From Porphyrobacter sp. (GTDB lineage Bacteria > Pseudomonadota > Alphaproteobacteria > Sphingomonadales > Sphingomonadaceae), in the NCBI GenBank assembly GCA_032116115.1, contig JAUMAX010000020.1, positions 6,220 to 70,219 on the forward strand: a stretch of DNA of 64,000 nucleotides, read 5' to 3'. Shown in pieces: positions 1,337 through 40,124 of the stretch. Each line of letters starts with the position of its first letter. The stretch's first letter is position 1. The notes beneath the pieces are model-generated. The model worked only from the letters and a program-made list of their open reading frames with translations. It did not search any database and was not told where the DNA came from. A program made the position numbers and the translations under genes.

Positions 1337-1346
1337 CCAGTCTGGA

Positions 1347-2138
1347 TTATTGCCCGCAAGCGCCGGCAAGCCGCATGTCGAGCAATTCTTCACGCCGATC
1401 CTTGGACAGCTCCGCGCCAAAGGCAACATCGATCTCGCTATAAACGCTGCAGACCTGAGCGGGATCCACATTACCAAGTGCGCGCAACGCCCGGGCCAAA
1501 GCGAACAAATTCTCTGCGCCCATGCCATCAGGTGGGCCGGCCTCGAATAGCTCGATGAAAATGTTGGCCGCCTGCCCTGCCTGGCCCTGCTCCAAGTAAA
1601 CAAGGCCAAGCCGATAGCGGGCTTCCTTGATCCGCTCATCGCCAGGACTGTTGGCGATGAAAGTCGTCAGCGCAAGTTCGGCGTTCGCCCATTCTTTCCG
1701 CTCCAGAAAGGCTCCCGCCTGTTCGAGGCGGTCGACTGGCAAGGGCACAGCTTGCTGCGTCGACGCAGGCGACTCGGCTGTCCCCGTCATGGTAACAGGG
1801 GCAAGCGGAGGCGCGGCGACGATTTCACCCGCCTTCGCATCGCTGCGAAGCCGGGCCAGTTCGTCCGCCAGCAAAGCGAGGCTGCGCTGATCCTCGTCCT
1901 GCCGCGATACCAGTTGCACGATGATGCGTTCCAACGAAGCAAGTCGGTCGTTCAGGCGCAGCATTTCGTCCCCAAGCGCAGTGTACCTAAGGTCTGCAGA
2001 TGCAACTGCCTGTGCCGAGACCCGATCAGTCACAGGATCAGCCGCTGCACCGGTCTGGGCAACCGCAACAATTGGCCAGAAGGTCACTCCCGAAACGGCG
2101 AGGCCAAGCGCCGCGAGGGCGTATCGGAAACCTCCCAT
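1347..2138 (-). CDS. YbgF/CpoB-like protein (signal peptide, coiled coil, TPR)
   Basis: Signal peptide ending AVA-Q, coiled-coil segment, TPR-like ARYRLGLVYLEQG and ENLFALARAL; last gene of a tol-pal-like cluster. Confidence 0.75.
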   Translation of the reverse strand: MGGFRYALAALGLAVSGVTFWPIVAVAQTGAAADPVTDRVSAQAVASADLRYTALGDEMLRLNDRLASLERIIVQLVSRQDEDQRSLALLADELARLRSDAKAGEIVAAPPLAPVTMTGTAESPASTQQAVPLPVDRLEQAGAFLERKEWANAELALTTFIANSPGDERIKEARYRLGLVYLEQGQAGQAANIFIELFEAGPPDGMGAENLFALARALRALGNVDPAQVCSVYSEIDVAFGAELSKDRREELLDMRLAGACGQ

Positions 2139-2140
2139 GA

Positions 2141-2797
2141 TCAGAATCTGAAGCCTACGCCGGCAGCTACGATCAGCGTACCCAGCCGCCGCGAATCGTT
2201 GGTGCGCGCTTCGCGCTCGATCAACACTTCCGTTTTGCGCGAGGTGTATTTAGCGTCGAGGTTCAGATAAATTCTATCATTGATCGCTATATCCGCGCCG
2301 ATCTGGGCCACGGGCGCAAAGCCGCTTGTCAACCGGACGCTGTAAGAAGCAAACGGGTCGGGTGCAGAATTGAGCAGCGCTACATCCGCCCCCTCCCCGT
2401 AGATATTGAGATGCGTGACGCCTGCACCGACGTACGGCCGAAGGACTTTGTCATCGCGGGCAAAGTGGTACTGCACGGTCGCGGTGGACATGAGCATATT
2501 TGCAGAGACAAGCTTTTCACCCGAAGGGGCGCGCAATTGGTAACCGGCGCTTCCGAGCGCAGCCTCAAACGCGAGGCGATTGGTGAGGAACATGGTCAGA
2601 CTGACTTCTGCTCCGACAGTGTCCTCGACGCCGGATTCGACCGCTTCACCCTCGTTGGGAAGTGTTAGCGTCAACCCGTCCAGCCGGTGATGATAGGTTC
2701 CCCTTGCCTTGATGAGAATATCACCAACTTCGGCATTGGCAGGTGCGCTCCCGAGCAGGGCCGCGATGGCGGCTGCAAGCATAGTCATTTCACGCAT
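2141..2797 (-). CDS. ompW: OmpW-family outer membrane beta-barrel
   Basis: SD AAGGAA before ATG 2797, signal ANA-E, RPYVGAG, GFAPVAQIGADI, LNLDAKY, C-terminal GFRF. Confidence 0.85.
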   Translation of the reverse strand: MREMTMLAAAIAALLGSAPANAEVGDILIKARGTYHHRLDGLTLTLPNEGEAVESGVEDTVGAEVSLTMFLTNRLAFEAALGSAGYQLRAPSGEKLVSANMLMSTATVQYHFARDDKVLRPYVGAGVTHLNIYGEGADVALLNSAPDPFASYSVRLTSGFAPVAQIGADIAINDRIYLNLDAKYTSRKTEVLIEREARTNDSRRLGTLIVAAGVGFRF

Positions 2798-2816
2798 TGG
2801 TAATTCCTTTTCTGTC

Positions 2817-3362
2817 TCACTGTCCGGCCACGCCCTTGAAGATCGTCTCTCCACGCCGGTTGCGGCGCTGGCTCTCCTGATCGAGAGCGGTGGCCACCGG
2901 CTTTTCCTTGCCAAACGAGGTTATCTGAATGCGCGCCGAGGCAACGCCGCGCGCTGCCAGATGGCGCCGCATTGCCGCAGCCCGCATTTCGCCTATCGCA
3001 AATTGCCGACCACGGTTGCCCAGCAGGTCTGCATGGCCCCGCAATGTGGCGGTGACGCGTGGATTCTGGAGCAGCCATTCAGCTTGCATGTCGAGCACGC
3101 CGCGCGCCGCGGCATCGAGCGTTACGCTGTCGCGATCAAAATAAATGATGGTCGATCCCGCAAAGGGCTCAGCTACCGGTTCCACGACCACAGGCGCAGG
3201 CTCGACCTGCTGGGCGCGCAGCGGCTCGGCAGGCAACCAGAACATTGGTGCAGGAGGCAGGTCCTGGGCCGGGCGTTGGCAGGAGCTCAGTCCCACACAA
3301 AACGCCATCAGAATGGAAGCCGACCGCCGTCCGAATGGGCGCCACAACCATATACTGTTCAT
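2817..3362 (-). CDS. Pal-like OmpA-domain lipoprotein (island paralog)
   Basis: Lipobox LSSC; IYFDRDS...GHAD...GEMRA...GV...SFGKEKP; ATGA overlap with the tolB-like stop. Confidence 0.85.
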   Translation of the reverse strand: MNSIWLWRPFGRRSASILMAFCVGLSSCQRPAQDLPPAPMFWLPAEPLRAQQVEPAPVVVEPVAEPFAGSTIIYFDRDSVTLDAAARGVLDMQAEWLLQNPRVTATLRGHADLLGNRGRQFAIGEMRAAAMRRHLAARGVASARIQITSFGKEKPVATALDQESQRRNRRGETIFKGVAGQ

Positions 3363-4672
3363 GGCAGAGTCTCCGACCAATGCGGCTCAGATCCGGCCAA
3401 GGGCAGAGCGATGCGGTATTGCACCCGCCCTGCGACATCTGTGACCCAGATCTCTGGCGGACTGCCGTTTTGGCTCACCCTCTGAAAGGAAACTGCCCTC
3501 CCGCTGGGAGCCCAGGACGGGTCTTCGTCATGCCCTCCTTCGGTGAGTATCCGTCTCTTGCTGCCGTCAGGCGCCATTACGCCGATCTGCTGCCCCTCGG
3601 AGGTCTGGGTGACGAAGGCGATCAGCGATCCGTCGGGGCTCCACACCGGAGAACCGTGCACTCCACCAAAACTGATCCGGCGCTGGTCACCGCCATCTAG
3701 CCGCATCACGTACAGCTGCGGTTGTCCGGAACGGTCGGATTCAAACACAATCGATTTTCCGTCAGGAGAATAGGACGGACTTGTGTCAATTCCCGTCATG
3801 TCGGTCAGGCGCTGCGATCGGCCGACAGCGAATTCATATTCGTAAATATCGGTGTTGCCGTCTTGCGACAAAGCCAACACTGCCCGACTTCCATCAGGAG
3901 AAAAGCGGGCCGCCGACGGCAGACCGGCGGGGAGCTGCAGCGATGTCCTGCGTCCGCTTTCCAGATCGAACAGGACAATGCGTGGCATGTCGCTCTGATA
4001 GGCGACGAACAGGGCCGAGCGGTTGTCGGGACTAAACTGCGGCATCGCGACGAGTTCGCCGTTGTTCAGAAGTTCGGTTGGGTTTGCCCCGTCGACATCG
4101 ACAGCGATGAGCCGGGTGGCCGGTTCTTCAGCGGCCGCGCCGGAAGAAACAAGCACGAACCGCGTATCGAAATGGCCTGAATATCCCGTCGCATGAGCAA
4201 AGACGAGATCGGCACACTTGTGAGCCGCCCTGCGCCATTGCCGCTGGGAGACACGAAATTCACGAGCGGTTTCGATGGTGCCGCTGAAAACATCGTAGAG
4301 CGCGCAAGAATAGACCAGCATACCGTCCGCAGCGCGCGCTGGCCGTCCGATGACAAGCGCTTGCGCGCCTTTGGCCGAAAATGCGCTAAGCAAGCTCTTG
4401 TCGTCGGCAACCGCCGCCGAAGGCGCATCGACGACACGGAAGAACGAACTGGTCGTCAGATCCGCGCGAATAACCGATGCAAGGGCGAGGCCAATATCCC
4501 CGCCCGTTCCAGCTTCGACCTGAATGTCGCTGGCAATAGTCGGGATTCCGATGGCAAGCGGAGCCATCACGCCTTCTTTTATGTCGACAAACAGACGATC
4601 CTGCGCAGCTGCCGGCGAGATGCAATTCGCCACAGTCAGCAGGGCAATAGACACGGCAAGATTCAGTCTCAT
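3359..4672 (-). CDS. tolB: TolB paralog (N-terminal domain plus PD40 beta-propeller)
   Basis: WRRAAHKCADLVF, repeated PxFSPDG/PSYSPDG/PSWAPSG, FESDRSG; colinear with the core TolB in this window. Confidence 0.9.
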   Translation of the reverse strand: MRLNLAVSIALLTVANCISPAAAQDRLFVDIKEGVMAPLAIGIPTIASDIQVEAGTGGDIGLALASVIRADLTTSSFFRVVDAPSAAVADDKSLLSAFSAKGAQALVIGRPARAADGMLVYSCALYDVFSGTIETAREFRVSQRQWRRAAHKCADLVFAHATGYSGHFDTRFVLVSSGAAAEEPATRLIAVDVDGANPTELLNNGELVAMPQFSPDNRSALFVAYQSDMPRIVLFDLESGRRTSLQLPAGLPSAARFSPDGSRAVLALSQDGNTDIYEYEFAVGRSQRLTDMTGIDTSPSYSPDGKSIVFESDRSGQPQLYVMRLDGGDQRRISFGGVHGSPVWSPDGSLIAFVTQTSEGQQIGVMAPDGSKRRILTEGGHDEDPSWAPSGRAVSFQRVSQNGSPPEIWVTDVAGRVQYRIALPLAGSEPHWSETLP

Positions 4673-5559
4673 CTCAGATCTCTCGAGTCGAATTCGACTT
4701 CGACGTCGGCCCAGGCCTCATAGAGTTCGGGCGGAAGCCGGAGCGGGGAGCACATCAAAACGGCACGACGTCCGCTGTTCGTGAGCAGATTGATGTATGC
4801 GGTGCTGACTTGGTTCTGGCCGGTTACGCCGCTCCGCACCGGTTGTCCGACGACACGGCCATCCCGATCCAAGCGAAACCTCAACCGCACACTGGTAGAA
4901 GCGAGACCATCAGCCGGTGGCGGGTTCCAGCACGGCATCACCTGTGCGCGAACCTTTTCGGCCAGATCGATCTTTTGCCGGAAAGTAAGCCCTTGAATGC
5001 CCTTGGGCGCCGCTTTGCCGACTGACGAACTGATGGTTGCTGAGTTGAGCCTTGACGGCTTAGCCTCGCTGCTCGCGAGATTGCGCAAGCCTGACAGGGC
5101 GGCCGCATCAAAGCGCGCTACGCGTCCGGCGCCCGGCTGCGGCTGCACGACGGGCGACGCGTTAGCAACTTGGGTAGGTTCTTCGGCCACAGGCGTAGGG
5201 GTCGGCGCAGGCGCAGCCGTAGGCTTCGGTACAGCCAAACGACTTTCGGACTCGGTATCAGATGGAACCGTCTTTGGCGTGACCTCCGGCTCCGGGCGAA
5301 CGGAAGCGGAGCGCATTGAGACAGTTTCGGGCTCCTCGGAGACAACATCGCGAGCCTGCGGCTGCGAGCGTGTAGCTGGCGGAGCATCGGCGATAACCGG
5401 GCGCGAGACGGGCATGGCGTGCGCAAGATCGATGATCTCGATCTCCATGCCTTTCTTCCGCGGTTCAGCCTCCTGGATTGCAAAGGTGACCCTGCCCAGC
5501 AAGAGGACGACGGCAATGTGCAGGATTACCGCTAACGCGTTAGAAACACGGTCGATCAC
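4669..5559 (-). CDS. TolA/TonB-like energy transducer (island paralog)
   Basis: N-terminal TM with His (AVILH), Pro/Thr/Glu-rich linker, C-terminal domain CWNPP...RFRLDRDG...W..VEVEFD. Confidence 0.8.
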   Translation of the reverse strand: MIDRVSNALAVILHIAVVLLLGRVTFAIQEAEPRKKGMEIEIIDLAHAMPVSRPVIADAPPATRSQPQARDVVSEEPETVSMRSASVRPEPEVTPKTVPSDTESESRLAVPKPTAAPAPTPTPVAEEPTQVANASPVVQPQPGAGRVARFDAAALSGLRNLASSEAKPSRLNSATISSSVGKAAPKGIQGLTFRQKIDLAEKVRAQVMPCWNPPPADGLASTSVRLRFRLDRDGRVVGQPVRSGVTGQNQVSTAYINLLTNSGRRAVLMCSPLRLPPELYEAWADVEVEFDSRDLR

Positions 5560-6020
5560 GGCAGGTCCGCGGAAGCCGGTTCGGCCGCCGGAACGGAAAC
5601 GAACGCAACCTTGGTAAAGCCAGCTTGCGCGATTCCTGAGACAACCTCCATCACGCTGCCATAGGCAAGCGACCGATCGGCGCGGACGAAAACCATCTGT
5701 TTGTCCGGGGCCTCGGATGCAAGCGCAAGCTGGGCGATGGCCTCCCCGAAAGCCTCTGGCGCCAAAAGCGTTCCGCCCAAGTATGTTTTCTGCTCGGCAT
5801 CGAGGATGACCTCAATCGGTTCTCCCCCGGCTGCGAGCGGGTTCGCGCGAACGTCGGGAAGGTCCACCTCTGTGCCGGAAACCAGCATTTGCCCGGTGAC
5901 CATGAAGATGATCAGCAACACCAGCATCACATCCACCATCGGGGTGACGTTGATTTCGGACAACAGATGGTCCTGCCGACGATGTCGGCGAGACCCGAGA
6001 AAATGCGATTTACCTGCCAT
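5556..6020 (-). CDS. tolR: TolR/ExbD paralog
   Basis: EINVTPMVDVMLVLLIIFMV with the essential Asp; VRADRSLAYGSVMEVV. Confidence 0.92.
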   Translation of the reverse strand: MAGKSHFLGSRRHRRQDHLLSEINVTPMVDVMLVLLIIFMVTGQMLVSGTEVDLPDVRANPLAAGGEPIEVILDAEQKTYLGGTLLAPEAFGEAIAQLALASEAPDKQMVFVRADRSLAYGSVMEVVSGIAQAGFTKVAFVSVPAAEPASADLP

Positions 6021-6049
6021 TGCCGCGCCCTAAGCCCTTCCCGCCAAGA

Positions 6050-6736
6050 TCAACGGATGATGCCGTACTGACGAGAAATGGCGACTTCGACGCGACCTGC
6101 GGTCGCACGCCACTCCTGATCGGTAGCTGCGAGCGCTTGCACGATCCGGTTGTAACCCATCGATGCCGGGATCGCGCAGAACAAGCCGACTGCGGTGGCA
6201 AACAGTGCTTCCGCCATCCCAGGCGCAACAACTGCAAGCGACGTATCCTGCGCCTGGCTGATGCCAATGAAGCTGTTCATGATACCCCAGACTGTGCCCA
6301 GCAGGCCAAAGAATGGAGCAGTATTGCCAATGGTAGCCAACCAGGTCGAATTGCCGGCAAGTTGCGCATATTCGCGCTCGATTGTTAGTTCCGATGCTGA
6401 CGCAAGACGATCCCGGATGTTCTCGTAGTCGCGGCTGGCGTGTTCAATGGACCACTTCCATTCCTGGGCCAGTGAGTGCAGGATCTCATGGACCCTGCCA
6501 TCGCCTGACACAGCAAGCTCTCGTAATTCTTCAATTGTCTCGACGGAACGAAGAAGCTTGCCGACGGTGCGGATCATTCGCCGCTCAATCGCGATCGCCA
6601 ATGTGCGGGCTATGATAACCGACCATGAATAGGCAGATGCCAGGACGAGGAGAATTATGACCGATTGAACGACCAGATCGGCTTCGAAGAAAATCTGTAA
6701 GGGCGTCATGCCGGATGAAATCCTTCCGATGGTCAT
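6050..6736 (-). CDS. tolQ: TolQ/ExbB paralog
   Basis: LATIGNTAPFFGLLGTVWGIMNSF and VAPGMAEALFATAVGL MotA/TolQ motifs. Confidence 0.93.
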   Translation of the reverse strand: MTIGRISSGMTPLQIFFEADLVVQSVIILLVLASAYSWSVIIARTLAIAIERRMIRTVGKLLRSVETIEELRELAVSGDGRVHEILHSLAQEWKWSIEHASRDYENIRDRLASASELTIEREYAQLAGNSTWLATIGNTAPFFGLLGTVWGIMNSFIGISQAQDTSLAVVAPGMAEALFATAVGLFCAIPASMGYNRIVQALAATDQEWRATAGRVEVAISRQYGIIR

Positions 6737-6782
6737 AGGCGATTACCTTCTGCCTGATGCCGAAGCGCAGAGACCCGAGATT

Positions 6783-7382
6783 TTAAAGAACGAGAGCGCG
6801 GAACAGGGTGGCGAGGTCAGGCACGCCGGTGACGGTGATCTTTTCGCGCTTCTGGAATGTCTCGACCGCCGTAGCGATGGACGTGCCCCATTGACCGTCG
6901 ATCGGTCCGGAATACATTCCGCGTTCCAACAGGCGCGATTGCAAGGCTTTGAGCGCCCCCTCGCGTATCGCCATCGTCCGGCCTTTGTGTTCAATAATGA
7001 CGATGGCCGTCGCGTTGCGCTGATGCATCGGAGAGGTTGCGCGAATGACCTCGTGGGCCGCAGCTTCAACGGTAATGGTCGGCTGATCGGCACAAATTGC
7101 CGACACTGCCTGCAAGAAAACTGCTCCATCAGGGAGCGGAAGGACATCAAAGGTTCCGTTTTCCACACGATTTCGTGCAGTCGCATATCCCATCAGCCAC
7201 GAACCATAATTGGCTGCATGTGTGCTGTCCGGGAATTCCGTGTTGAATGTCTCGCACGTGCGTGAACCGTAGCCTCGCAACGCAAAGCTTCCTTCCACAT
7301 CCGATGCAGCGGCGCCGTTATGAAAAAATGCGCTGGCTGCAAAGACTGCGGAGCCCGCCAGAAACTTTGAAAAGCTGTACAT
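6783..7382 (-). CDS. Secreted protein: HdeA/HdeB-like two-Cys N-terminal domain plus PG_binding_1 domain
   Basis: Signal ending AAA-S; GYGSRTC...YGSWLMGY...N...IC..QP; C-terminal LQSRL..RGMY.GPIDG.WG....AV..FQ.......TG..D. Confidence 0.75.
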   Translation of the reverse strand: MYSFSKFLAGSAVFAASAFFHNGAAASDVEGSFALRGYGSRTCETFNTEFPDSTHAANYGSWLMGYATARNRVENGTFDVLPLPDGAVFLQAVSAICADQPTITVEAAAHEVIRATSPMHQRNATAIVIIEHKGRTMAIREGALKALQSRLLERGMYSGPIDGQWGTSIATAVETFQKREKITVTGVPDLATLFRALVL

Positions 7383-7461
7383 GCTGTGATGCCTTTGCAG
7401 AAAAAGGTGCGAAACCCCGGGTCTGGTGAATGCGCTCACCGCGCCCGAGGTTTCCACTTGA

Positions 7462-7527
7462 GTGGTCCTGACCGGAGTCGCTAGATCAGGACCACATGCA
7501 GCCCACAGGCTCGGGGGGAACCTGTGG
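7462..7527 (-). terminator. Two tandem stem-loops just after the giant gene stop (attenuator or mRNA-stabilising hairpins)
   Basis: CCACAGG(7503-7509)/CCTGTGG(7521-7527) and GTGGTCCTGA(7462-7471)/TCAGGACCAC(7486-7495) are perfect inverted repeats; no strong U-tract. Confidence 0.55.
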
Positions 7528-7537
7528 AAGCAGCAAT

Positions 7538-10500
7538 TTACTTGGCCCCGATGACGGAAACCGAGCTGTTGCCGATAGCCGTCGCCGAGCCAGCGTTGCC
7601 GCTGTTCACGAAGCTGCTGGCACCGAACGTCCCGAACGAACCGACGCTGTAGGTCACATTAGATGCAACCGCAGTCACTGCGCCGGTGTTGGTCTGCTGG
7701 TTACCCAGCGCGACATTGGCCATGCCGGTGTTCAGCGAGCTCAGCATGACAGTGTTGGCTGTCGTGTTTCCGACCGCAAAGGCCGTCGTGCTGTTGTTGC
7801 TGTTGCTGACACTTGCATTCAGCACACCCGCAGTCGTTGCCGCGCTCGTCGCGTTGAGGGCGATCGACGTCCTCCCCGTGGCGATGGCGGACACCGAACC
7901 GGTGTTCGACTGATCGTTGAGCAGCGCCGCATTTGCCTGGGCAAGGTTGGTTCCGCCATTGATCGTCGCGTTGCCATCAGCACCCGTATAGCTGGCGCCT
8001 GCGGTGTAGTTCAGCGTGTTGGAAGCGCTGTTACCGCGAGCAAGTGCCAGGGTGGTGTTACCTTCGACAGATACCGAGCTGGTATCGAGCGAAGGCAACG
8101 GGTTCGGCAGAATTCCTGCGTCGCCGCTGACAGTGAACTGAACGTTGCTGGTCGCATTAGCCACGGTGGTGGTGCTGCTGGACTGCTGGTTCACCAACAT
8201 TGCCGATGAACCAAGGTTCGCATCGGCACCCACGGACATCGTGTTGGCCGAACGGTTGGCAGTCGATTCCGACCGGGTCGCGTTGTTCGACATCGAGACG
8301 CTGCCATCGACGAGACCAGTGGTGGTCGTGTCGTTGGAGCCGATGTTGTAGACGCTCGTGGTGGCCGAAGTATCCAGCGTTCCCGTTGCATTCTGGGCGT
8401 TGACCAGAACGAACGAAGCGTCGCTGTTGGCAGTAGTGCCATTTGCAACATTCGAATTACCGGCTGCCTGAGCCACCGAAGTCGAATTGGTTGACGATGC
8501 AGTCAGCGTGTTGGTCGCGTTATTGACCACACCCAGCGCACTGTTGGCGTTGCGATCCAGTGCCACGTTCGACCCGCTGGAAACGACGTTGGCCGCCACT
8601 TCCATGTCGCTGCTGGCGTTGATGTCAGCCGTTGCACCATCTTGCACACTGGTCAGCACGCCCGACGTTGCCGTTCCGGCCAGATCCGTACCAGCAACCG
8701 TGAGGCTGTTGGTCACGGTGTTACCGATCGCTTCACCGTACGCGCTGTTGCCCGATACGCTGAGGGTCGAGTCGGTGATCGCCGTGTCAAGTGCACCATC
8801 AATTGCGAAGGTGGTGAACACTTCGGTCGTGCTGCTGCTACCTGCCAGCAGCGTCTGGGTGGAAGCCAGGGATGAGTCGGCTGTGCCTTCCGCTTCTGGC
8901 TGACCAGTCCCATTCACCCAAGCTTGGGAGTTACCGATGGCATTGTTACCATCAGCCGAAGTCGATGCGACAGTCACGCTGTTGGCCGCCGAGTTGCCAA
9001 TCGCCGACCCCTGCACCGCGTTGCCTTCAACGGCAATTGTGCTGGAGTCGATGACACCTTCAACGTCCACCAGAACACCGCCGGCGTTGAACGATCCAGT
9101 GGTGCCGGACACTGGCAGAGTTACACCGCCCGTACCGGGGGTGGCGTAGGAGAATACGCGCGTGATGGGGTTATAAGTGACGGCGTATTGGGCGAGGAAT
9201 GCATTCACCTCGTCAGTGCTCAGACCAGCAAGGCTGCCGGTCGCAACACCAGCGGTGATCGTTGCCGAAACGGTGAACGGTGCAACATCGGCGCTGCCAG
9301 CAAAACCGATCAGAGCAGAAACATCCTGCGAGCTGACCTGAGCGTTGCCAAGACCTGCAGTGACCCCGTCCAGCGTGGTTCCGTCGACACTGACCGCGTT
9401 GGTCGCACGGTTGCTGGAGGCAAGTGCCTGCAGCAGGTTACCGTTCGATTCAATCGAGGACGAAGTGACAGTGGAGTTCACGTCGGTGACAACCGCCGAG
9501 CTGTTTCCAAAGGCGCCGCCGGTTGCTTCACGCAGGCTGGCGACCACATTGCCGGCACCCGCCACCTGGGTGTTGGACACCCCGAACTGCGCGTCGACAG
9601 TATTTTGGTCGCTACCCGGATACGCATCCGACTGGGCGGTAAGCGCGCTGCCCGAAAGCGACGTGCCCGAAACCGTCAGGACATTGCTGGCCCGAGCGGA
9701 TTCTGCCGAAGTCATGACCCGGTTGTTCGAGGTTTCCACCGAGCTGCGCAGAATTGCGAGATCGATTTCAGTCTCGGCGACAGCCTGTCCATCGCCATTG
9801 ACGGTGGCAAGAATATTTGCCCCGGCAACGTTCTGGAGGTTGGCAATCGCTGCATCGCCCTGGCTGTTGACCGAAGTCAGCGTGCCGACGTCCAGAGTCA
9901 CAGCATTGGCTGCCACCGTGCCCTGTGCCTGTGCCATCAGCGTGTTGGCATTCACGACGGTGTTCGCGTCGGTCAGCCCACCTTGCACATCCATGCGGAA
10001 CGAGTTCGTGTCATCCGGAATGCTCGTGGCAGTCACACCCGCACGCACCTGCTGCACGTTGACAACGCCAAAAGCGGCGGTGGCAGTTGCATCAAGCGAC
10101 GTCGGGCGGCTGTTGGTTACACCGCCGTTCGCGCCCAGCTCAAGGATCTGCGCGTCAACGGTAAGGGTGTTGGCAGCAACGGTACCGCGTGCAATTGCCG
10201 AAGCATTGTTGCCCGCAATTTCCGCCGAACTTTCAACGACGTTACCGCGGTAGCTTACATCGACCGAAGCATTCTGCGTAGCCGTAACGGTCGAAGTTGC
10301 ATCATTGGTCTGCAAGTTCGCAATGCCAGCTGCCGAACCGACAGTGACACCCGTCAGCGACAGGCTGTTGCCAGCATCGCTGCCGACCGCAAAGGCCTGC
10401 TGGGCATTGTTGGTGACAGCAACCGAAGTGTTGGTGGCATTGCCGCTCTGAGTCTGTCCGATGGTGACATCAATGTCCGATGCACTGTTCTCGGCAGACA

Positions 10501-12196
10501 CGGTCGATGCGGTGTTGATCATTGCACTGGCAATGACGACCGCACCAGAGGCAGAGACAGCCTCGTCACCCAATGCCACCGGTGCCAGATCAACCGTCAG
10601 AGCCGCCGAAGTGGCCGTGCCGGAATTCAGCGAGGTCGCTTCCAGACCGATCGTCTGACGGGCACGGTTGCCCGCTGCGCTGGAAGCCAGAACGTTGGCA
10701 TCCACCGTGATCGTGCTGTCAATGAAGCTGGCAGTGGCACTGCCTGCAACATCAACATTGATATCAGCATTGTCCGAATCTGCCTGAAGATCAACGGTGT
10801 CCAGTTCCTGACGCGAGGCCAGCACGGCCGATGCATCAAACACTGCCGAAGAATCACCGCTGGCAATAACTGCGTTCAGGTTGTTACCCGTTGCCCCGGA
10901 CGTGATGCGGTTGGACGATGCATCAATCGAGCTGCTGTTGGGAGTCTCGACATCAACATCAACCTGGTTGCCGTCGCTCAAGCTGCGCAAAATGCCAGTC
11001 GTCACGACCTGCGTGTTCACGCCGACCAGACCGCCGCTGGCGATGACATCAGCCAGGTTGGCCGGGCCCGCACCAAGTTCGTCGATCGTTGCGCTGGCCG
11101 TATTGGCCGCCCCGGTGTTGTAGGCAAGACCATCAGCCAGTGCGATCTGCGTCGTGGCAGTGTTGCCGTTGGCCGCAGCTGCAATCGTGTTCGAAGCAAC
11201 CGACAGGCTGCTGTCGACGAACGACGTGGTGACGGCACCAGGACCGGAAATGTTGGCCCTTACGGCATTGCTCCGAGCGATAGCAGCATTGTCGGTGGTG
11301 TTCGCATCGAACGACTGCGCATTGCTGATCGCTGCCGTCACCGAGGTGTTGGCATCGTCAGCAGCAAGGCCGATCGAAGCGGTACGTGCGTTTGCAGTGA
11401 AGGTTGCAGTCACGTCATTGCCGTCGAGCGTGGCCGTTCCAGTGACGTCTGCAGTTGCAGTCGTCGAGATCGACACGAAGGTCGTCGAATCAGCCGTTTC
11501 TGCGGTCGAATCGGCGCTTGCATTTGCGATCTGCACCGACGACACCAGCAGCGTGCCCTCAAGGTCGGCAACGTCGGTGGCCGAACCCGAAAGGTCGGCC
11601 GTGACAGTAGCGTTGTTGGTGGCAAGATTGGTGTAACCAACCGGCTCCGAACCAGTGATCGACAGCGCGAAGGTGTTGCTGCCTTCGTTGATCACAACAC
11701 CGGAAGATACCGTGTTGTTCGAAACATCGACCGAACCGGTCGCGAAATCGACCAGAGTGGTGCCGATGTCTGCCGAAGAATTGGTGGCATCCACACTGGC
11801 AGTTACGCCCGTGTTGACCGACACACCCGACAGCGCAATGCCATCGTCAAGCAGGGTTGAGCTGCCGATATTGGCGAGCGAAGCCGAAACGCCGTTGCGG
11901 TTGGCAATGGCGGTCGCATCGGCAGTGTTCGCGTTGTTTTCGAACACGCCGTTGGTGACCGCACCAGTGTTGGCGGTGGTCGCATCGAAATCGACGTTGG
12001 TGGCGAGTACGGCACCAGTGTTGCGCTGGGCAGTGGTGTCACCGCCGGTGACGTGCGCCTGCAGCACCGAATCAAAGTTCGGAGCAGTCACAATGGACTG
12101 CGCTTGTGCCGGACCGGCAATGATCGCGGATGCCAAAATGGCAGTGCTGGCGCCAGCAAATAGCTGTGAGCGTTTTGTGGATATTCTACTATTCAT
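7538..12196 (-). CDS. 1552-aa secreted beta-repeat surface protein (HfaD/curli-like repeats; adhesin, fibre or S-layer candidate)
   Basis: Sec signal ending AQA-Q; about 18 copies of S-x-x-V-x-x-N-x3-A-x-A-x-G-N-x-A-x-N, mostly followed by an N-x-Q segment; rich in Ala/Ser/Thr/Asn/Val/Gly/Asp, no Cys. Confidence 0.85.
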   Translation of the reverse strand: MNSRISTKRSQLFAGASTAILASAIIAGPAQAQSIVTAPNFDSVLQAHVTGGDTTAQRNTGAVLATNVDFDATTANTGAVTNGVFENNANTADATAIANRNGVSASLANIGSSTLLDDGIALSGVSVNTGVTASVDATNSSADIGTTLVDFATGSVDVSNNTVSSGVVINEGSNTFALSITGSEPVGYTNLATNNATVTADLSGSATDVADLEGTLLVSSVQIANASADSTAETADSTTFVSISTTATADVTGTATLDGNDVTATFTANARTASIGLAADDANTSVTAAISNAQSFDANTTDNAAIARSNAVRANISGPGAVTTSFVDSSLSVASNTIAAAANGNTATTQIALADGLAYNTGAANTASATIDELGAGPANLADVIASGGLVGVNTQVVTTGILRSLSDGNQVDVDVETPNSSSIDASSNRITSGATGNNLNAVIASGDSSAVFDASAVLASRQELDTVDLQADSDNADINVDVAGSATASFIDSTITVDANVLASSAAGNRARQTIGLEATSLNSGTATSAALTVDLAPVALGDEAVSASGAVVIASAMINTASTVSAENSASDIDVTIGQTQSGNATNTSVAVTNNAQQAFAVGSDAGNSLSLTGVTVGSAAGIANLQTNDATSTVTATQNASVDVSYRGNVVESSAEIAGNNASAIARGTVAANTLTVDAQILELGANGGVTNSRPTSLDATATAAFGVVNVQQVRAGVTATSIPDDTNSFRMDVQGGLTDANTVVNANTLMAQAQGTVAANAVTLDVGTLTSVNSQGDAAIANLQNVAGANILATVNGDGQAVAETEIDLAILRSSVETSNNRVMTSAESARASNVLTVSGTSLSGSALTAQSDAYPGSDQNTVDAQFGVSNTQVAGAGNVVASLREATGGAFGNSSAVVTDVNSTVTSSSIESNGNLLQALASSNRATNAVSVDGTTLDGVTAGLGNAQVSSQDVSALIGFAGSADVAPFTVSATITAGVATGSLAGLSTDEVNAFLAQYAVTYNPITRVFSYATPGTGGVTLPVSGTTGSFNAGGVLVDVEGVIDSSTIAVEGNAVQGSAIGNSAANSVTVASTSADGNNAIGNSQAWVNGTGQPEAEGTADSSLASTQTLLAGSSSTTEVFTTFAIDGALDTAITDSTLSVSGNSAYGEAIGNTVTNSLTVAGTDLAGTATSGVLTSVQDGATADINASSDMEVAANVVSSGSNVALDRNANSALGVVNNATNTLTASSTNSTSVAQAAGNSNVANGTTANSDASFVLVNAQNATGTLDTSATTSVYNIGSNDTTTTGLVDGSVSMSNNATRSESTANRSANTMSVGADANLGSSAMLVNQQSSSTTTVANATSNVQFTVSGDAGILPNPLPSLDTSSVSVEGNTTLALARGNSASNTLNYTAGASYTGADGNATINGGTNLAQANAALLNDQSNTGSVSAIATGRTSIALNATSAATTAGVLNASVSNSNNSTTAFAVGNTTANTVMLSSLNTGMANVALGNQQTNTGAVTAVASNVTYSVGSFGTFGASSFVNSGNAGSATAIGNSSVSVIGAK

Positions 12197-12251
12197 TAGA
12201 TACAGTTCCCTTTTGGATTTGCGTGCGTTTGATTTTATTTTGCAACCCGAG

Positions 12252-13616
12252 TTACTTTATTTTTATTTGTATTTTTGCGATTTCCTGGAACCCCGGGCCA
12301 TCACGATATATTGCGGAATCGCCCGAAGATGGCCTCCAGTTCACTTGCACCGCTGAAGCAGGTACCCCCCTGTTTGAAAGCGCGGCGACTACCGCCGCAA
12401 TGCGCTGGTCCAGCAGGGCGTCGCGCCGTGCCGGATCCCAGTTCTCAGTGTCCCGCGCGACCAAAGTCACCGAGACAGTGCCCTCGCCCGAAAGCTGGGC
12501 AATCATGTCCAGCACGGATTGTGCGCTCGACATGAGATTGGAATCGCCGAACTCGAAGCCGAGCTGCATCTGGCCGGCAGCGGAAGATGCACCCTTCGCG
12601 TCCAGTTCGTTGAGCGAGCGAGCGGCTGTGGGAGTCGGCATTGCCGGAGCCTGCACAGGCGCGGGGACGTATCCTTCCTGGCTCGAAACCAACAAAGACC
12701 GTCCGCGCAGTTCGTCTGCCGACTTCTCGGGAATGGTATCGAGGCGCTGCGCCATGCAAGTCGCCGGGTCGACGTTCTTGACCGAGGCAACCAGCTTAAG
12801 AACGCCCTCCTCGAGCGCCGTGCGGATCCCAAGCTGCAAGGGCTCCTGGCCCTTCGCACCGATATTGATGTCGAACAGTTCGGTGCCGAAAAAGCGAAAG
12901 ACGCCGGCACCAATCTCGTACCCGCTGAATTGCTTTGTCAGGCTCACCGTTTTCAGCACCAGCAGTGAACGTGTATCGACAATCCGCAGGTCGATAGCGA
13001 CGCTTTGCGTGTACACACGCGCTTCCGGGCCGACATTGTTGACTGTGATTTGCGCACCGCCGGAGCGGATGTTGTAGTTTACTTCCGTGATGCCGCCGAC
13101 AATGTAGTAATCAGACTGCGCAATCGTCCCGCCAAAGTAAGGAAGCCACGGCACGCGATCACCATTTACCTGATGCACTTGGCCGTTGCCAAGCTGACGA
13201 CGATCCGTGTAGCCCAATTCGCGCTCGGCAATTGTCGGGTCAAAGCGCTCAGCTATCCGGAGCGGCCCGCCGATCTTTCCAAGTGCAGAATACACCATCA
13301 GCGATCCGCCCTGCGTGATCGCGTTGCCTTCATTGATGGAATATTTGCCGGTGTAATCGCGAACTTCTCCGACCGCGACGACAACAGGTTGGGAGGTCGT
13401 TGCAGTCAGCTGATCACCGAAGCAAGCGAGCGCCCCCTCCATCGGCGAGCGATTGTCACGAACTGGCGCACCGATTGCGATCGGCACTTCGCCCGGCGCG
13501 ACCCGCTGGCTGTCGAGGCCTACTCCCGTCGCGGCACAGCCTGAAAGGCCGCTGCCGAGCAAGGTAACCATCGCCGCAATTGCAGCGCGCGGAGTTTTGC
13601 GATTTGCGGAATGCAT
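12252..13616 (-). CDS. hfaB: HfaB/CsgG-family outer membrane lipoprotein with C-terminal OmpA-like domain
   Basis: Lipobox LSGC; VGEVRDYTGK, ITQGGSLM, SDYYIVGGITEVNYNIRSG, AIDLRIVDTRSL, EPLQLGIR match HfaB/CsgG as recalled; tail GFEFGDSNL...QRIAAVVAAL..RGVPAS resembles OmpA_C. Confidence 0.85.
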   Translation of the reverse strand: MHSANRKTPRAAIAAMVTLLGSGLSGCAATGVGLDSQRVAPGEVPIAIGAPVRDNRSPMEGALACFGDQLTATTSQPVVVAVGEVRDYTGKYSINEGNAITQGGSLMVYSALGKIGGPLRIAERFDPTIAERELGYTDRRQLGNGQVHQVNGDRVPWLPYFGGTIAQSDYYIVGGITEVNYNIRSGGAQITVNNVGPEARVYTQSVAIDLRIVDTRSLLVLKTVSLTKQFSGYEIGAGVFRFFGTELFDINIGAKGQEPLQLGIRTALEEGVLKLVASVKNVDPATCMAQRLDTIPEKSADELRGRSLLVSSQEGYVPAPVQAPAMPTPTAARSLNELDAKGASSAAGQMQLGFEFGDSNLMSSAQSVLDMIAQLSGEGTVSVTLVARDTENWDPARRDALLDQRIAAVVAALSNRGVPASAVQVNWRPSSGDSAIYRDGPGFQEIAKIQIKIK

Positions 13617-13622
13617 GGGGCT

Positions 13623-14156
13623 CTATCCAGCTGCCGCATACTGGCAAGCCGACGATCCATTGATGGTCGACGTCTGGTTGCCCGAGTTCGTCTGGCGGGT
13701 ATTGAGCGCCTGGAAATTGTCACCTCGGACAGAGGTTGACATCGAACCCGATGATCCAGCGGCGACTGCACCCGAATTGCCCTGCGTCGTTGTATCGGTG
13801 CTGCCGTCACCCGGTCCGCCAGCTGCGTATGTCGTGTCATTCTGGTTACCGGTCGCATCAGTATTGTGCCCTGCCGTGCTGGGCGAGTTGGCGACCGCAT
13901 TTGACGACGACTCATTTCCAGTCGCAGTCGAATTGACCGAGCAATTATACTGATCATCGATGTAGGTATTATATATTGGGGCCGAATAATAACCGTTTAT
14001 TCCGCGCTGACGCACTTCTTCAAGATACATAAGCGCCGCTCTATCGGCTGGTGTGTTGAATTGCCAAGCCGCATTTTCGCCAACGTTATTGGCAAATGAT
14101 GGCTGCGCGACAAGAGATCCAACCATGGATATTGCGAGAAACAACTTCTTGGGCAT
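13623..14156 (-). CDS. Small secreted Asn/Ser/Thr/Gly-rich protein, HfaA/CsgA-like subunit candidate
   Basis: ATG 14156, signal ending SFA-N; STATGN, TDATGN, QTNSGNQ motifs shared with the giant protein; sits directly upstream of hfaB as hfaA does. Confidence 0.7.
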   Translation of the reverse strand: MPKKLFLAISMVGSLVAQPSFANNVGENAAWQFNTPADRAALMYLEEVRQRGINGYYSAPIYNTYIDDQYNCSVNSTATGNESSSNAVANSPSTAGHNTDATGNQNDTTYAAGGPGDGSTDTTTQGNSGAVAAGSSGSMSTSVRGDNFQALNTRQTNSGNQTSTINGSSACQYAAAG

Positions 14157-14212
14157 TTCGTTTAACCTAATGAACTGGGAAATTCGGACGTCGCTTGAAG
14201 ATGCGGGGGCCG

Positions 14213-15541
14213 TCACAATGCAGGCATCGAACAAGCCGACGCCTCGTGCTGCGCATGAGGCGCCGCCACCTTCGCCCAGGATCTGGAAATTCGTTGACCA
14301 CCGCACCACGCGCCCTTTTGCAGCGCAGCGCGACTTTCACGCGCGACAGTAGCCAGGTTGATACAGTCCACACCGTCGACAATGACCTCGGCACCCAAGG
14401 CGTGCGCCAATCCGACAAGGTAAGAAAGTGGATCACCGCCAAATTGGGTGCGCAATGTTTGCGAGAGAAAATGCCTGTCAATCGTCACAAAATCGGGAGT
14501 GAAAGCGACCAGATCGCGCAACGACGTCGAGCCTAGGCCGAAGTTGCCGAAGGATATGCGACAACCTTGCCGCCTGAGCATGGCGAGCGTTTCGCTCATA
14601 CCTGGGGCCGCGCAGGCCACTGCAGATCCTCTGACCTCAACGATCAGGTCACGCGCTACACCGCCGCCGCGCTCGAGCTTTTCGAGAATTCCGCGCCAGA
14701 AATGTTGATCGGAGAGGCTTTCGTGAGAGACTGAGACCAATAATGAGACCGCGCCACGCGCTTCAATCAACTCGTCGGCCGCACGCGAGACGATATAGCT
14801 GTCAAGCAAATGGACGAGGCCAACTCGCTCTGATGCTGCTATTACCTGCTCGCAGGCCGCAGGCTGACCATCCGCTCTGATCAACGCAAGCGTCGCTTCG
14901 TAGAAGGCCGATCCGCCTGGCGCGGCCGCTCTGCCGACGGGCCGCCAGCCAATATCGACATCGACGACATCTCTTGCCAGTCCGACTCGCTCGGCTTCGC
15001 GAAATCCACCAATTGCGGCAAGTACGGGCGACAAGACCGCCATATCAGTACGATACGAGCGCCGAGCAGCCTCGACAGCCGACAGGATGATGACATCTGG
15101 ACCGGCCGCAGCGACGCCATTATTCAGACAGCGCTCTGAACCATCAAGATTGATTACGGAGGCGTGGAGATGAACCGGCCCCGCGGCGGTGAACACTGGT
15201 TCGAGAACAATGTCTCTGATGAGCGCTTCGAGCCAATCGCTTTCGGCATGGTCGAACCGATCAGAGCCGCGCTTGGGCGCGCCCCAGAAGATCACCCCTA
15301 CGCGTGCTGCACCTTCGGGGCTTGCTACGCCGGCCGAACCGAGCCCGGCCTGCACACGCGCCAACAAGGTGGCAAACGCAGCTTGCGCAACTTCGAGGCC
15401 GAACGCCTCGACGATCATTTGATAGTTTTGTATTTCTATTACGAACACTTGCTCCGACCTGACGTCGGATAAACGCTGCCGTAGAGAGGGGTGAATCAGT
15501 ATCTTGTTCGACAATTGCAAATCGCTGAGATCCACGTCCAC
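14213..15541 (-). CDS. Degenerate GGDEF-EAL protein (probably catalytically inactive)
   Basis: EAL-fold landmarks FYEATL, LIVEV, FGNFGLGSTSL, VTIDRHF, VIVDGVD; eroded N-terminal GGDEF-like segment; GTG start. Confidence 0.8.
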   Translation of the reverse strand: MDVDLSDLQLSNKILIHPSLRQRLSDVRSEQVFVIEIQNYQMIVEAFGLEVAQAAFATLLARVQAGLGSAGVASPEGAARVGVIFWGAPKRGSDRFDHAESDWLEALIRDIVLEPVFTAAGPVHLHASVINLDGSERCLNNGVAAAGPDVIILSAVEAARRSYRTDMAVLSPVLAAIGGFREAERVGLARDVVDVDIGWRPVGRAAAPGGSAFYEATLALIRADGQPAACEQVIAASERVGLVHLLDSYIVSRAADELIEARGAVSLLVSVSHESLSDQHFWRGILEKLERGGGVARDLIVEVRGSAVACAAPGMSETLAMLRRQGCRISFGNFGLGSTSLRDLVAFTPDFVTIDRHFLSQTLRTQFGGDPLSYLVGLAHALGAEVIVDGVDCINLATVARESRAALQKGAWCGGQRISRSWAKVAAPHAQHEASACSMPAL

Positions 15542-17928: not shown

Positions 17929-18489
17929 TTACCCCTTGATCACCCACCACTCCGGCCAGTTCACCTTGTGCGGCGTGCGGGTCGAATTCCAAACTTCGCG
18001 CTGCTCTTCCTGGCTAAGCTGCTTGCTGCCGAGCCGCACCAGTGCGGCCTCAACGATCCAGGGATCGAGATCCCAGCGCACGCGGGCTTCATCAGTCGGG
18101 TGCTTGAGCTTGGCCATTCCTAGCAGTTCGAGAATCGCATCAGCTCCAATGCCGACCGAGCGGATCACAATCTTGGAGATACCAGTGGCCTTGTCGTCAC
18201 CTCTTGCCGCCCTCGCGGCTTCGATCGCCTCAAGCGAAGCGCGTGCAGCTGTGCTGTCACCAGCGAGGCCTTTCTGGGTGAGCTGCAGCAGGAACGCCTC
18301 GGCGGCGGTGACTCTGCGCTCGTGCCCATCCTCACGGACGGTCACCATCTGACCCAGCACCGCATCGTAAGGGATCTCGCGGTGACGGTTCTTGGGACGT
18401 CCGCGCGGATTGCCGGACTGCCCCTTGGTGAACTTCGAGGCCTTGGGCGGCTGCCTGTAGCCAACCTGCTCTTGCGCGCCCTCGCTCAT
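17929..18489 (-). CDS. DUF5681-like protein
   Basis: VGYRQPPKASKFTKGQSGNPRGRPK motif; ATGA overlap with the upstream gene. Confidence 0.8.
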   Translation of the reverse strand: MSEGAQEQVGYRQPPKASKFTKGQSGNPRGRPKNRHREIPYDAVLGQMVTVREDGHERRVTAAEAFLLQLTQKGLAGDSTAARASLEAIEAARAARGDDKATGISKIVIRSVGIGADAILELLGMAKLKHPTDEARVRWDLDPWIVEAALVRLGSKQLSQEEQREVWNSTRTPHKVNWPEWWVIKG

Positions 18490-19004
18490 CCGGTGCAACC
18501 TCGAGGCCAGCGCAGCTTGTCGGAATCGAAGGTGAAGAACTCGATGTTCTTTGCATCCTTCTCGGCCAACCTTCGCGTGCCCGGCCTGCTAAGCGCAGCC
18601 TGCGTCGCCCAGGCATGGATTTTCCAGCGATTGGGGAACCCGGGATCGGGTTCTGAAATGCCGAGAACACGCATCGCCTCATTGGCATTGTCGGCATAAT
18701 GATGCCGCTCGACTTTGACCTTCGAGCGTGAGGTCGCACAATTCTTCTTCGCAAGCGTCATTTCGCGCTTCTCGATCATCTTGAGCACTTTGCGGATCGC
18801 CATGCGCTTTCCGGCAAGCGCGTCGCGCAAGGTCTGCTGTTGCAGCACCTCCTCGACCGTCAGCTCGCGCTCCTTCCCGCCGATGGTTGCGGTCATGCGC
18901 TTGTCGAGCACGATCTCGAACGCGGAGACGTTGGGTCGGCGCGGCTTGCGGGGACGCCCGTTGGGATTGCCGGACTGGCCGGGCTTGAAGCGGGTCGTGC
19001 TCAT
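18486..19004 (-). CDS. DUF5681-like protein
   Basis: TRFKPGQSGNPNGRP motif; ATGA overlap with the methyltransferase stop. Confidence 0.8.
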   Translation of the reverse strand: MSTTRFKPGQSGNPNGRPRKPRRPNVSAFEIVLDKRMTATIGGKERELTVEEVLQQQTLRDALAGKRMAIRKVLKMIEKREMTLAKKNCATSRSKVKVERHHYADNANEAMRVLGISEPDPGFPNRWKIHAWATQAALSRPGTRRLAEKDAKNIEFFTFDSDKLRWPRGCTG

Positions 19005-20308: not shown

Positions 20309-20488
20309 AAGTGGAACATACCACGCAAGCCCCTCTTTCAAAAGCAACAAGACTCAACTTTATTCACAGCTGTGGAAACGACTGGACTACGGCGGCACGG
20401 CAAGCATTACTGTTCCTGCGCCCGGCGAACCGGGCTCGTCCCGGTAGCGGCGGCCATTCCGGCCCCGCCGCGCAAACCGGAGACGAAC

Positions 20489-20731
20489 ATGGCTGCTACC
20501 AACGCCGCAACCAGCCCCAGCGCCGCAAAGCCCGCGAGCAAGCTCGATACACTCGAGAAGCTGCTCACGCGCAAGAACGGCGCCGCCATTGCCGAGATGA
20601 CCAAAGCCACCGGATGGCAACAGCACTCGGTGCGCGGCGCGCTTGCAGGCGCCATGAGGAAGCGCGGGCACACGATCACCTCGGACAAGGTGGATGGCAC
20701 GCGCCGCTACAAGATCGAGGTCGCCCAATGA
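20489..20731 (+). CDS. DUF3489-like small winged-helix protein
   Basis: SD GGAG; GAAIAEMTKATGWQQHSVRGALAG motif. Confidence 0.8.
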   Translation: MAATNAATSPSAAKPASKLDTLEKLLTRKNGAAIAEMTKATGWQQHSVRGALAGAMRKRGHTITSDKVDGTRRYKIEVAQ

Positions 20732-21135
20732 TCGCCGAGGTTGAGCGGCTCGTTGCCGAGATCGAGACCCTCGATCTCGAAGGCCTGCGCGATGTTTGGA
20801 GGGAGCGCTACGGCGCCCCTCCCCCGCTGCGCTCGGCGCCGATCATGCGCCAGCTGCTGGCATGGCGCGTGCAGGCACAGGCGCTGGGCGGGCTGGATGC
20901 CGAGACCCGCAAGGTATTGGCACGCTCCGGTCCCGTGCAGGCCGACGGCAAGCACCTCGGGGTTGGCGCGCAGCTGACGCGCATCTGGAAAGGCCGCGAG
21001 ATCACGGTGATCGTCGAGGAACAGGGGTTCCGCTGGGAGGACGAGCTGTTCCCCAGCCTCTCGGCCGCGGCCACCGCAATCGCAGGCACGCGCTGGAACG
21101 GGCCGCGCTTCTTCGGCTTGCGAGATGCTGCATGA
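20728..21135 (+). CDS. DUF2924-like protein
   Basis: LRDVWRERYG.PPP...LLAWRVQ...GGLD; LTRIWKG...SLSAAATAIAGTRWNGPRFFGL; ATGA overlaps at both ends. Confidence 0.82.
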   Translation: MIAEVERLVAEIETLDLEGLRDVWRERYGAPPPLRSAPIMRQLLAWRVQAQALGGLDAETRKVLARSGPVQADGKHLGVGAQLTRIWKGREITVIVEEQGFRWEDELFPSLSAAATAIAGTRWNGPRFFGLRDAA

Positions 21136-22712: not shown

Positions 22713-22719
22713 CGCGATC

Positions 22720-40091: not shown

Positions 40092-40124
40092 CGCTCGTGT
40101 TCCTTTCACTCGTAACGGGGAAAA

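Follow-up and report, generated by a model that had tools for sequence, protein, structure and literature searches.

The window analysed here is a stretch of 64,000 nucleotides (nt) from Porphyrobacter sp. (contig JAUMAX010000020.1); coordinates without a locus name are window positions. Between 1347 and 15541 it carries 12 co-directional minus-strand open reading frames (ORFs), separated by short gaps and overlapping by 4 nt at tolR/tolA, tolA/tolB and tolB/pal (Table 1). A preliminary description had seen here 12 consecutive genes for a curli- or holdfast-anchor-type secretion system with a giant repeat protein and its own Tol-Pal motor. In family searches, all of these ORFs proved to exist at or near the positions it had assigned, and most retained their first names. 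The order of the full array is a degenerate GGDEF-EAL protein, a small secreted protein, an HfaB-like lipoprotein, the giant protein, a protein with a PG_binding_1 domain, TolQ, TolR, a TolA-like protein, TolB, Pal, an OmpW-family protein and a tetratricopeptide-repeat (TPR) protein. One label was revised: the fifth product had been called an HdeA-like peptidoglycan-binding protein, and its peptidoglycan-binding domain was found, whereas the likeness to HdeA was dropped, as PG_binding_1 was the sole domain match.

Table 1. Features of the gene array and of the neighboring mobile-element flank (window positions; aa, amino acids; MFE, minimum free energy)
Feature	Position	Strand	Basis
Degenerate GGDEF-EAL protein, FimX-like, 442 aa	14213..15541	-	PF00563 1.5e-25
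Small secreted protein, HfaA position, 178 aa	13623..14159	-	Signal peptide, gene position
HfaB/CsgG-like outer-membrane lipoprotein, 454 aa, very probably with an OmpA-like C-terminal domain	12252..13616	-	PF03783 1.7e-17
Giant secreted protein, 1552 aa	7538..12196	-	Translation with signal peptide
GC-rich hairpin cluster directly 3' of the giant gene	7383..7537	-	MFE -75.6 kcal/mol, z -5.6
Secreted protein, C-terminal PG_binding_1 domain	6783..7457	-	PF01471 7e-13; likely start 7382, 199 aa
TolQ paralog, 228 aa	6050..6736	-	MotA_ExbB 4e-31; TIGR02796 177 bits
TolR paralog, 154 aa	5556..6020	-	ExbD 2e-23; TIGR02801 109 bits
TolA-like protein, 296 aa	4669..5559	-	TIGR02794 4e-5, 23 bits versus cut-off 59
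TolB paralog, 437 aa	3359..4672	-	TIGR02800 356.8 bits versus cut-off 343.15
Pal-like lipoprotein	2817..3380	-	OmpA domain 2.5e-15; likely start 3362, ATGA overlap with tolB
OmpW-family 8-stranded barrel	2141..2914	-	PF03922 4e-21; likely start 2797, 218 aa
CpoB/YbgF-like TPR protein, 263 aa	1347..2138	-	TIGR02795 4.7e-11, below cut-off; TPR_6 match
Mobile-element flank: DUF5681 x2, ParB-N/DNA methylase, large serine recombinase, tRNA-Ser	17929..23200	.	Pfam, ARAGORN

The second, third and fourth genes form a trio that recurs in other bacteria. Its central product had been described as an HfaB/CsgG lipoprotein, and this assignment was confirmed. In addition to the CsgG family match, it has the lipobox LSGC and matched E. 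coli CsgG chains in the PDB (4.6e-12). With the HfaB equivalog model NF037935 it scored 203.7 bits (2.8e-60), below the cut-off of 300, whereas true HfaBs scored 368-410 bits, and in a phylogenetic tree it was placed outside the true HfaB clade. It is encoded by the sole CsgG-family gene of the genome. The csgE and csgF genes had been reported as absent from the window; a search of the whole genome, in which the E. coli control was found, likewise gave no match for either. No hfs gene was present in the annotated part of the window, in which no search was aimed at hfs families.

The HfaB-like protein also has a tail of ~115 residues (about residues 340-454) that is conserved beyond the CsgG domain. 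All 29 PDB matches of a tail profile were OmpA-like (OmpA C-domains, Pal, MotY, YfiB and PorE; best E 0.029). An AlphaFold2 (AF2) model of the tail (predicted local distance difference test, pLDDT, 82.8) has the OmpA-like alternation of strands and helices, and its best Foldseek partners were Pal/OmpA C-domains (probability 0.95-0.99, template modelling (TM) score 0.5-0.63). Although none of these scores is strong by itself, all of the evidence agrees, and the pore protein is therefore very probably pinned to peptidoglycan by an OmpA-like tail. In the closest genome relative, a metagenome-assembled genome (MAG) of Erythrobacter (L034, 10001-12167), the hfaB-like gene matches residues 1-275 only and is followed by a separate 257-aa ORF, which represents either a disrupted gene or an assembly frameshift.

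The gene upstream of hfaB, present at this place in about 70 loci, codes for a small protein with a signal peptide, a conserved N-terminal domain and a C-terminal Q/N/G motif, for which no Pfam or NCBIfam match was found. Its family is compact, with 117 clusters at 50% identity among 1.84 billion representatives. The initial naming of this product as an HfaA-like subunit is supported by gene position and by the C-terminal motif, which aligned with true HfaA over 25 columns only (hhalign E 0.0016); no wider homology to HfaA was found. A CsgF-like N-terminus was also considered and dropped, because the small protein had no PDB sequence match even at E 10.

The giant protein has a signal peptide and no Cys, and A, S, T, V, N and G account for 72% of its residues. 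With an HMM built from motif copies chosen by eye, about 14-17 copies of a 30-residue motif (SSVxVxGNxxxAxAxGNxAxNxLxV) were mapped at a spacing of roughly 75-95 residues; self-BLAST detected no internal repeats. Invariant columns in 25 giant homologues are mostly N, Q, G or A. Residues 753-1552 were modelled by AF2 as an all-beta structure with many strands of 17-25 residues (pLDDT 88.7, predicted TM score 0.86). The giant had no Pfam match and no PDB sequence match, and Foldseek found no significant structural analogue of the model in the PDB or BFVD. Neither the giant nor the small protein matched Pfam at E 0.01 or better, and hence neither matched the curlin repeat. Giant homologues are named in databases only as beta strand repeat-containing or hypothetical proteins. 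Thus, the view that an Hfa/CsgG-type module is accompanied by a Sec-exported, all-beta giant in the position of HfaD agrees with the family matches, the signal peptide and the AF2 model.

Several candidate identities of the giant were considered and rejected. A classical beta-helix, an autotransporter passenger and an RTX protein found no support in Foldseek (TM score <=0.08 in the PDB and <=0.16 in BFVD) or Pfam. Homology to HfaD was likewise not supported: the BLAST value of 1e-13 was uncorrected, rose to E >=0.02 with composition correction and stood at 0.13 in hhalign. The likeness is at the level of motifs only, the C-termini of both proteins having NQxNTGAVxA...ATA(I/V)GNS-type motifs. 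In three other loci, a 2OG-Fe(II) oxygenase gene (PF13759) is located beside the giant or PG-binding genes (L044 16396-17031, L094 15106-15873 and L095 5571-6230); the gene is not in this window. Its product may hydroxylate the Asn/Asp-rich giant.

The remainder of the array is a second Tol-Pal set (Tol2). A housekeeping ybgC-tolQRAB-pal cluster, also reported in the preliminary description, is located at 39570-43964, and the genome has exactly two TolB genes. The second set is 30-41% identical to the housekeeping one (TolQ2 39% to TolQ; TolB2 38% to TolB1). The identities first given to tolQ, tolR, tolA, tolB, pal, ompW and ybgF agree with family matches, which are weak for TolA and below cut-offs for Pal and YbgF. 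The TolA-like protein has an N-terminal membrane anchor, a Pro-rich linker and a TolA-type C-terminus that is 30% identical to that of housekeeping TolA (E 1.6e-8), and its homologues in metagenome contexts carry PF27683. The Pal-like protein has the lipobox LSSC and scored 86.9 bits with TIGR02802 (cut-off 125). Like an ordinary Tol-Pal system, the second set has counterparts of all six components in canonical order, those of TolA and Pal being putative, and a TolB above its equivalog cut-off. It also has the transmembrane Asp of TolR, which an alignment with the E. coli protein showed to be kept in each of nine Tol2 loci. It differs from the cell's own set in falling into a separate long-branch clade, in having no ybgC, in the insertion of an OmpW-like barrel between pal and cpoB, and in its constant position, in the metagenome contexts, downstream of the Hfa-like module and the PG_binding_1 gene. 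The ompW gene had this place in 5/5 metagenome contexts, and tblastn found OmpW in 8/9 Tol2 loci. The CpoB-like gene is conserved at the end of the array and was undetected in three Tol2 loci, some of which end within cpoB; the Tol2 loci compared otherwise keep every partner, except ompW in one. The PG-binding gene is present in every Tol2-linked locus, as well as in several tol-less relatives.

To place the locus among other genomes, the HfaB-like protein was scanned against one genome per species, which yielded 317 relatives, and 80 loci were kept. The order small protein, HfaB-like protein, 1000-2000-residue protein was observed in nearly all loci with enough flank. Hosts of this trio were Novosphingobium, Sphingobium, Sphingosinicella and Erythrobacter among Sphingomonadales, Variovorax, Xenophilus, Limnohabitans, Polaromonas and Ramlibacter among Comamonadaceae, and scattered other taxa. 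Within Sphingomonadales the trio is rare and patchy (5 of 251 genomes; none of 11 in the host's genus). The trio arrangement grades into canonical hfaA-hfaB-hfaD loci. Each of six Variovorax genomes has two trio copies (L023/L038, L017/L025, L027/L040, L022/L039, L029/L053 and L015/L046), split between two distinct HfaB subclades.

The preliminary description was to be refuted if the tol-pal paralogs were linked to the hfa-like genes in this genome only, and this condition did not hold. The full array was also found in the genomes with loci L002, L003, L007 and L034/L089, and in all five metagenomic contexts fetched via TolB2 relatives (L092-L096), save for upstream genes where a contig ends. 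TolB2 identity in linked loci ranged from 70% down to 43% (64% down to 43% in L092-L096). In total, the trio is joined to a Tol2 array in at least 14 loci. A scan with TolB2 alone found just one close relative, and genomic context was taken from exact-sequence look-ups. For further pairs of TolB2 and giant homologues the longest contigs were equal in base count, and the pairs are therefore probably on shared contigs.

Phylogenetic analysis of 122 TolBs placed TolB2 in a clade of 72 sequences that has 100% support, stands on a stem of 0.58 substitutions per site and branches from within the housekeeping TolBs of sphingomonads. Context is known for 17 TolB2 sequences, each of which is module-linked and inside this clade, and all 12 named housekeeping TolBs fall outside. 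The Tol2-linked HfaBs, in turn, fall in a single clade of 13. Two TolB genes were found in this genome only, whereas 242 of 243 sampled Sphingomonadales with a TolB match have one. Presence of TolB2 on known plasmids was also considered and rejected: PLSDB held only housekeeping-type TolBs, on chromids. No member of the TolB2 clade was found on a PLSDB plasmid or standing alone.

The most upstream gene of the array points to regulation by cyclic di-GMP (c-di-GMP). The description of its product as a degenerate GGDEF-EAL protein proved correct: the best PDB match, over residues 32-361, was FimX(GGDEF-EAL), itself a degenerate c-di-GMP receptor, and in an alignment to an active EAL domain the protein has S, RG, GN, T and D where the catalytic residues are N, TE, DD, K and E. 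The protein is probably a c-di-GMP receptor and not an enzyme, and an EAL gene is located upstream of the trio in relatives too. On the other side of the array, bases 1-6400 of the L120 contig and window positions 3-1336 carry an H-NOX (haem-NO-binding) gene, a hybrid response regulator, two histidine kinases (one with dCache) and a single-domain receiver. This set lies to the left of the array, partly outside the window and convergent with the cpoB-like gene, and the same set flanks the array in L092. The system may be controlled by sensing of nitric oxide (NO).

In the gaps between the genes of the array, prediction gave no intrinsic terminator. The 155 bases after the stop codon of the giant gene fold into two or three strong hairpins, and hairpins with different sequences follow the giant gene in L092, L093, L094 and L002 (z -3.5 to -7.8). 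The hairpin cluster is likely a 3'-end stabiliser or attenuator, and its place after the giant gene suggests that the tol genes are not simply expressed together with the giant and to the same extent. Such an arrangement would fit strong expression of a structural gene, with accessory genes attenuated behind it.

The locus differs from its surroundings in base composition, with a G+C content of 0.56-0.60 versus 0.63-0.68 for the rest of the window. An AT-rich stretch upstream of the cluster (16750-17100; G+C about 0.50 in a 2-kb bin) contains several promoter-like sites, and small ORFs at 16377-16709 and 17197-17550 had no family match. Further along, a serine recombinase of 638 aa (20796-22712) and tRNA-Ser (23110-23200) mark a flank at which G+C rises from 0.50-0.60 to 0.63-0.68, and 17929-23200 is probably the right-hand end of an integrated island. 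In two metagenomic contexts, Trb conjugation genes (TrbB/C/D/E/K/L-like) were found a few kb past the cpoB-like end (L093 15748-21314 and L094 17445-21311); in both, the array is thus carried by a conjugative element. Judged by composition and flanks, the locus appears to be an accessory, horizontally mobile island.

Among known systems, HfaA-HfaB-HfaD of Caulobacter crescentus is the most similar to the trio in gene order, with a small secreted protein, a CsgG-family lipoprotein and a secreted beta-rich protein; the small protein has HfaA's C-terminal Q/N/G motif, and the giant has HfaD-type end motifs. In Caulobacter, surface placement of HfaA and HfaD requires HfaB, their presumed translocon, and HfaD was noted to resemble surface-layer proteins (PMC6707917). 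The present locus differs in that its HfaB scores below the equivalog cut-off and has the extra OmpA-like tail, and in that the giant is 3-5 times longer than the four true HfaDs recovered (232-417 aa after trimming). In canonical hfa loci from other alphaproteobacteria, covered by about 5 kb on each side, tblastn gave matches to hfaB only and no Tol-Pal. In addition, we take the hosts of the trio not to be stalked holdfast formers. Because the match to HfaA is local and the likeness to HfaD is not significant, the module is best regarded as Hfa-like in design but not as a member of HfaABD.

The locus shares with the type VIII (curli) system of E. coli the CsgG-domain lipoprotein and Sec-exported, Q/N/G/A-rich substrates with conserved Asn/Gln. 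Curli fibres, however, polymerise from subunits of about 13 kDa, whereas the substrate here is a single chain of 1552 residues, and the genome lacks CsgE and CsgF and the substrate has no curlin-repeat match. Two other systems offer functional analogies. PorE of type IX secretion, which we take to join a secretion-associated outer-membrane lipoprotein to an OmpA-like peptidoglycan anchor, has a C-domain that ranks with the best fold matches to the HfaB tail, and the Agl-Glt and Nfs systems of Myxococcus couple TolQR-type motors to surface proteins. In both cases only the shared domains are homologous, whereas the locus keeps a whole Tol-Pal set with TolB, Pal and CpoB.

On balance, we lean towards reading the locus as an accessory, mobile envelope system with two layers. 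The first layer, in which a giant surface protein is exported and anchored in an Hfa/type VIII-like way via a wall-pinned CsgG-family pore, we consider likely. The CsgG-family lipoprotein, pinned to the wall by its OmpA-like tail, would form an outer-membrane passage for two Sec-exported proteins. The small protein in the HfaA position would stay at the pore as an anchor or nucleator, and the giant would cross unfolded and fold outside into a long all-beta structure serving as an adhesin, fibre or coat subunit. The giant is probably the main product, and its production would be under c-di-GMP control via the FimX-like GGDEF-EAL protein together with the H-NOX and two-component genes. The gene identities, the conserved linkage, the separate TolB2 clade, mobility and the all-beta model are results of the analysis, whereas we infer from sequence how the proteins are exported, that they are located at the surface and all that the second Tol-Pal would do.

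The second layer would comprise the PG_binding_1 protein and the diverged TolQ-TolR-TolA-TolB-Pal-OmpW-CpoB set, in which the proton-motor residue is kept. That this set is coupled to the export module at all seems moderately probable. In the Tol-Pal cycle, TolQRA uses proton-motive force and strips TolB from Pal, and Pal then binds peptidoglycan. The second set would run this cycle with its own TolB2/Pal2 pair and concentrate tethers between the outer membrane and the wall at or around the export and anchor sites; such tethers would position the load-bearing giant and keep the membrane from tearing off. The Tol-Pal paralog would thus be a lineage-specific partner in one sphingomonad sublineage, probably for tethering or positioning.

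A number of observations weigh against this reading. With regard to the first layer, the HfaB-like protein is below the NCBIfam equivalog cut-off, the small protein is homologous to HfaA over a short stretch only, and the giant shows no significant homology to HfaD (hhalign E 0.13); we know of no case in which a chain of 150 kDa passes a CsgG-type pore. With regard to the second, tol genes are missing within 10 kb of most trio loci, and among loci with enough flank 57 were scored as tol-less and 9 as tol-linked, the genes after the giant in tol-less loci being unrelated regulators and enzymes. In the order-level sample, each of the four other genomes with a trio has one TolB. L044, which is basal in the linked clade, has a 2OG-Fe(II) oxygenase gene, a PG-binding gene and an Omp85/POTRA gene instead of tol genes. 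Finally, the hairpins after the giant gene may separate transcription units.

Because most trio loci are tol-less and the other trio genomes have a single TolB, a second Tol-Pal is dispensable for the module in general. The proposal of a dedicated Tol-Pal for giants thus stands as a conserved pairing in one clade and not as a general requirement. The Omp85/POTRA gene in the place of tol genes in L044 means that the envelope partner is exchangeable, and the presence of the PG-binding gene in L044 and in several tol-less relatives indicates that this partner is older and more widespread than the Tol link. One of the 57 tol-less loci, L004 of a Sphingosinicella MAG, was a miscall. A 1326-aa ORF without family match directly follows its tolQ2 (17092-21072), either a second giant or an insertion in the tol part, and the longest contig of a TolB2-clade protein equals the L004 contig in length (170,640 bases), so that TolB2 is probably on the same contig as the L004 trio.

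The role of the second Tol-Pal could also be explained in other ways. It might power export, with TolQ2R2A2 driving the HfaB-like pore in a TonB-like manner or pulling the chain and with TolB2 and Pal2 as couplers. In favor of this are the close, conserved packing of the genes, the retained motor residue and the long stem of TolB2, which hints at a change of function; moving an unfolded chain of 150 kDa by diffusion alone also seems demanding. However, similar giants of 1573-2038 aa occur in trio loci without dedicated tol genes, no TonB-box-like element was identified, and the retention of TolB, Pal and CpoB with Tol-Pal-type domains fits a Pal-mobilising cycle better than pore gating; we regard powered export as improbable. 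Of the three roles first suggested for the Tol-Pal set, to energise, position or tether the product, energising is the least supported. It is also conceivable that Tol2 is a spare or host-adapting envelope-integrity set that shares the island and is functionally untied to the Hfa-like module. Conjugation genes adjoin the array of this mobile island in relatives, the trio works without tol elsewhere, and the tol part is separated from the giant gene by hairpins. Yet such hitch-hiking is hard to reconcile with an order and spacing that are kept while the proteins diverge to 43-44% identity and the flanks differ, with the module linkage of every context-known TolB2 member (17/17, none on a PLSDB plasmid or alone), or with the long TolB2 stem, which argues for a new role and not for redundancy, and we give it little credence.

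An explanation centred on the giant itself is that it forms a cell-wide coat as an S-layer-like or sheath subunit, in hosts that have an outer-membrane glycosphingolipid instead of lipopolysaccharide (LPS), with Pal2, the PG-binding protein and the OmpW-like barrel lending stability to the coated membrane as a whole. The composition of the giant is S-layer-typical (acidic, A/T/S/N-rich, no Cys), the strong hairpins after its gene suggest very high expression, and HfaD has been likened to surface-layer proteins (PMC6707917). However, the same family is present in Comamonadaceae, which have ordinary LPS, the giant has long strands without compact lattice domains and matched no S-layer structure, and the c-di-GMP receptor and the genes for NO sensing suggest that the protein is made conditionally, in the sessile state. 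A coat of this kind is in our opinion unlikely. More generally, the product had been portrayed as a polymer, fibre or S-layer-like coat, and such a form found no support. Compared with these explanations, we retain the two-layered system, with the second Tol-Pal as a probable tethering or positioning partner.

The arrangement was not found in the literature on HfaB/CsgG together with Tol, on Tol-Pal paralogs or on the host genera, and Tol-Pal reviews are also silent on it, in agreement with the initial impression that the combination is undescribed. None of its parts is of a new kind; what is new is the variant, with a giant substrate, a pore that has a tail and a Tol-Pal held captive. Through the trio, the CsgG/HfaB family, otherwise associated with small amyloid subunits and with the holdfast anchor, comes to include proteins of 1000-2000 residues as well, and substrates of the giant type have a confidently predicted all-beta architecture without match, in common soil and water bacteria (Novosphingobium, Sphingobium, Variovorax and Limnohabitans). 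Several carriers are cultured strains, so the predictions are directly testable.

The housekeeping Tol-Pal of alphaproteobacteria is essential and is treated as a single-copy machine, whereas the second one may be dispensable. A diverged, full Tol-Pal that travels only with an export module is therefore a natural experiment on the possible uses of the Tol-Pal cycle. It is possible, though doubtful, that it has been re-purposed as the proton-driven partner of a type VIII-like system, either powering export of an unfolded 150-kDa chain through a CsgG-family pore or actively placing peptidoglycan tethers around it. If this is true, a Tol-Pal machine would for the first time have a job beyond envelope housekeeping and division, and a type VIII-like pathway would for the first time be energised.

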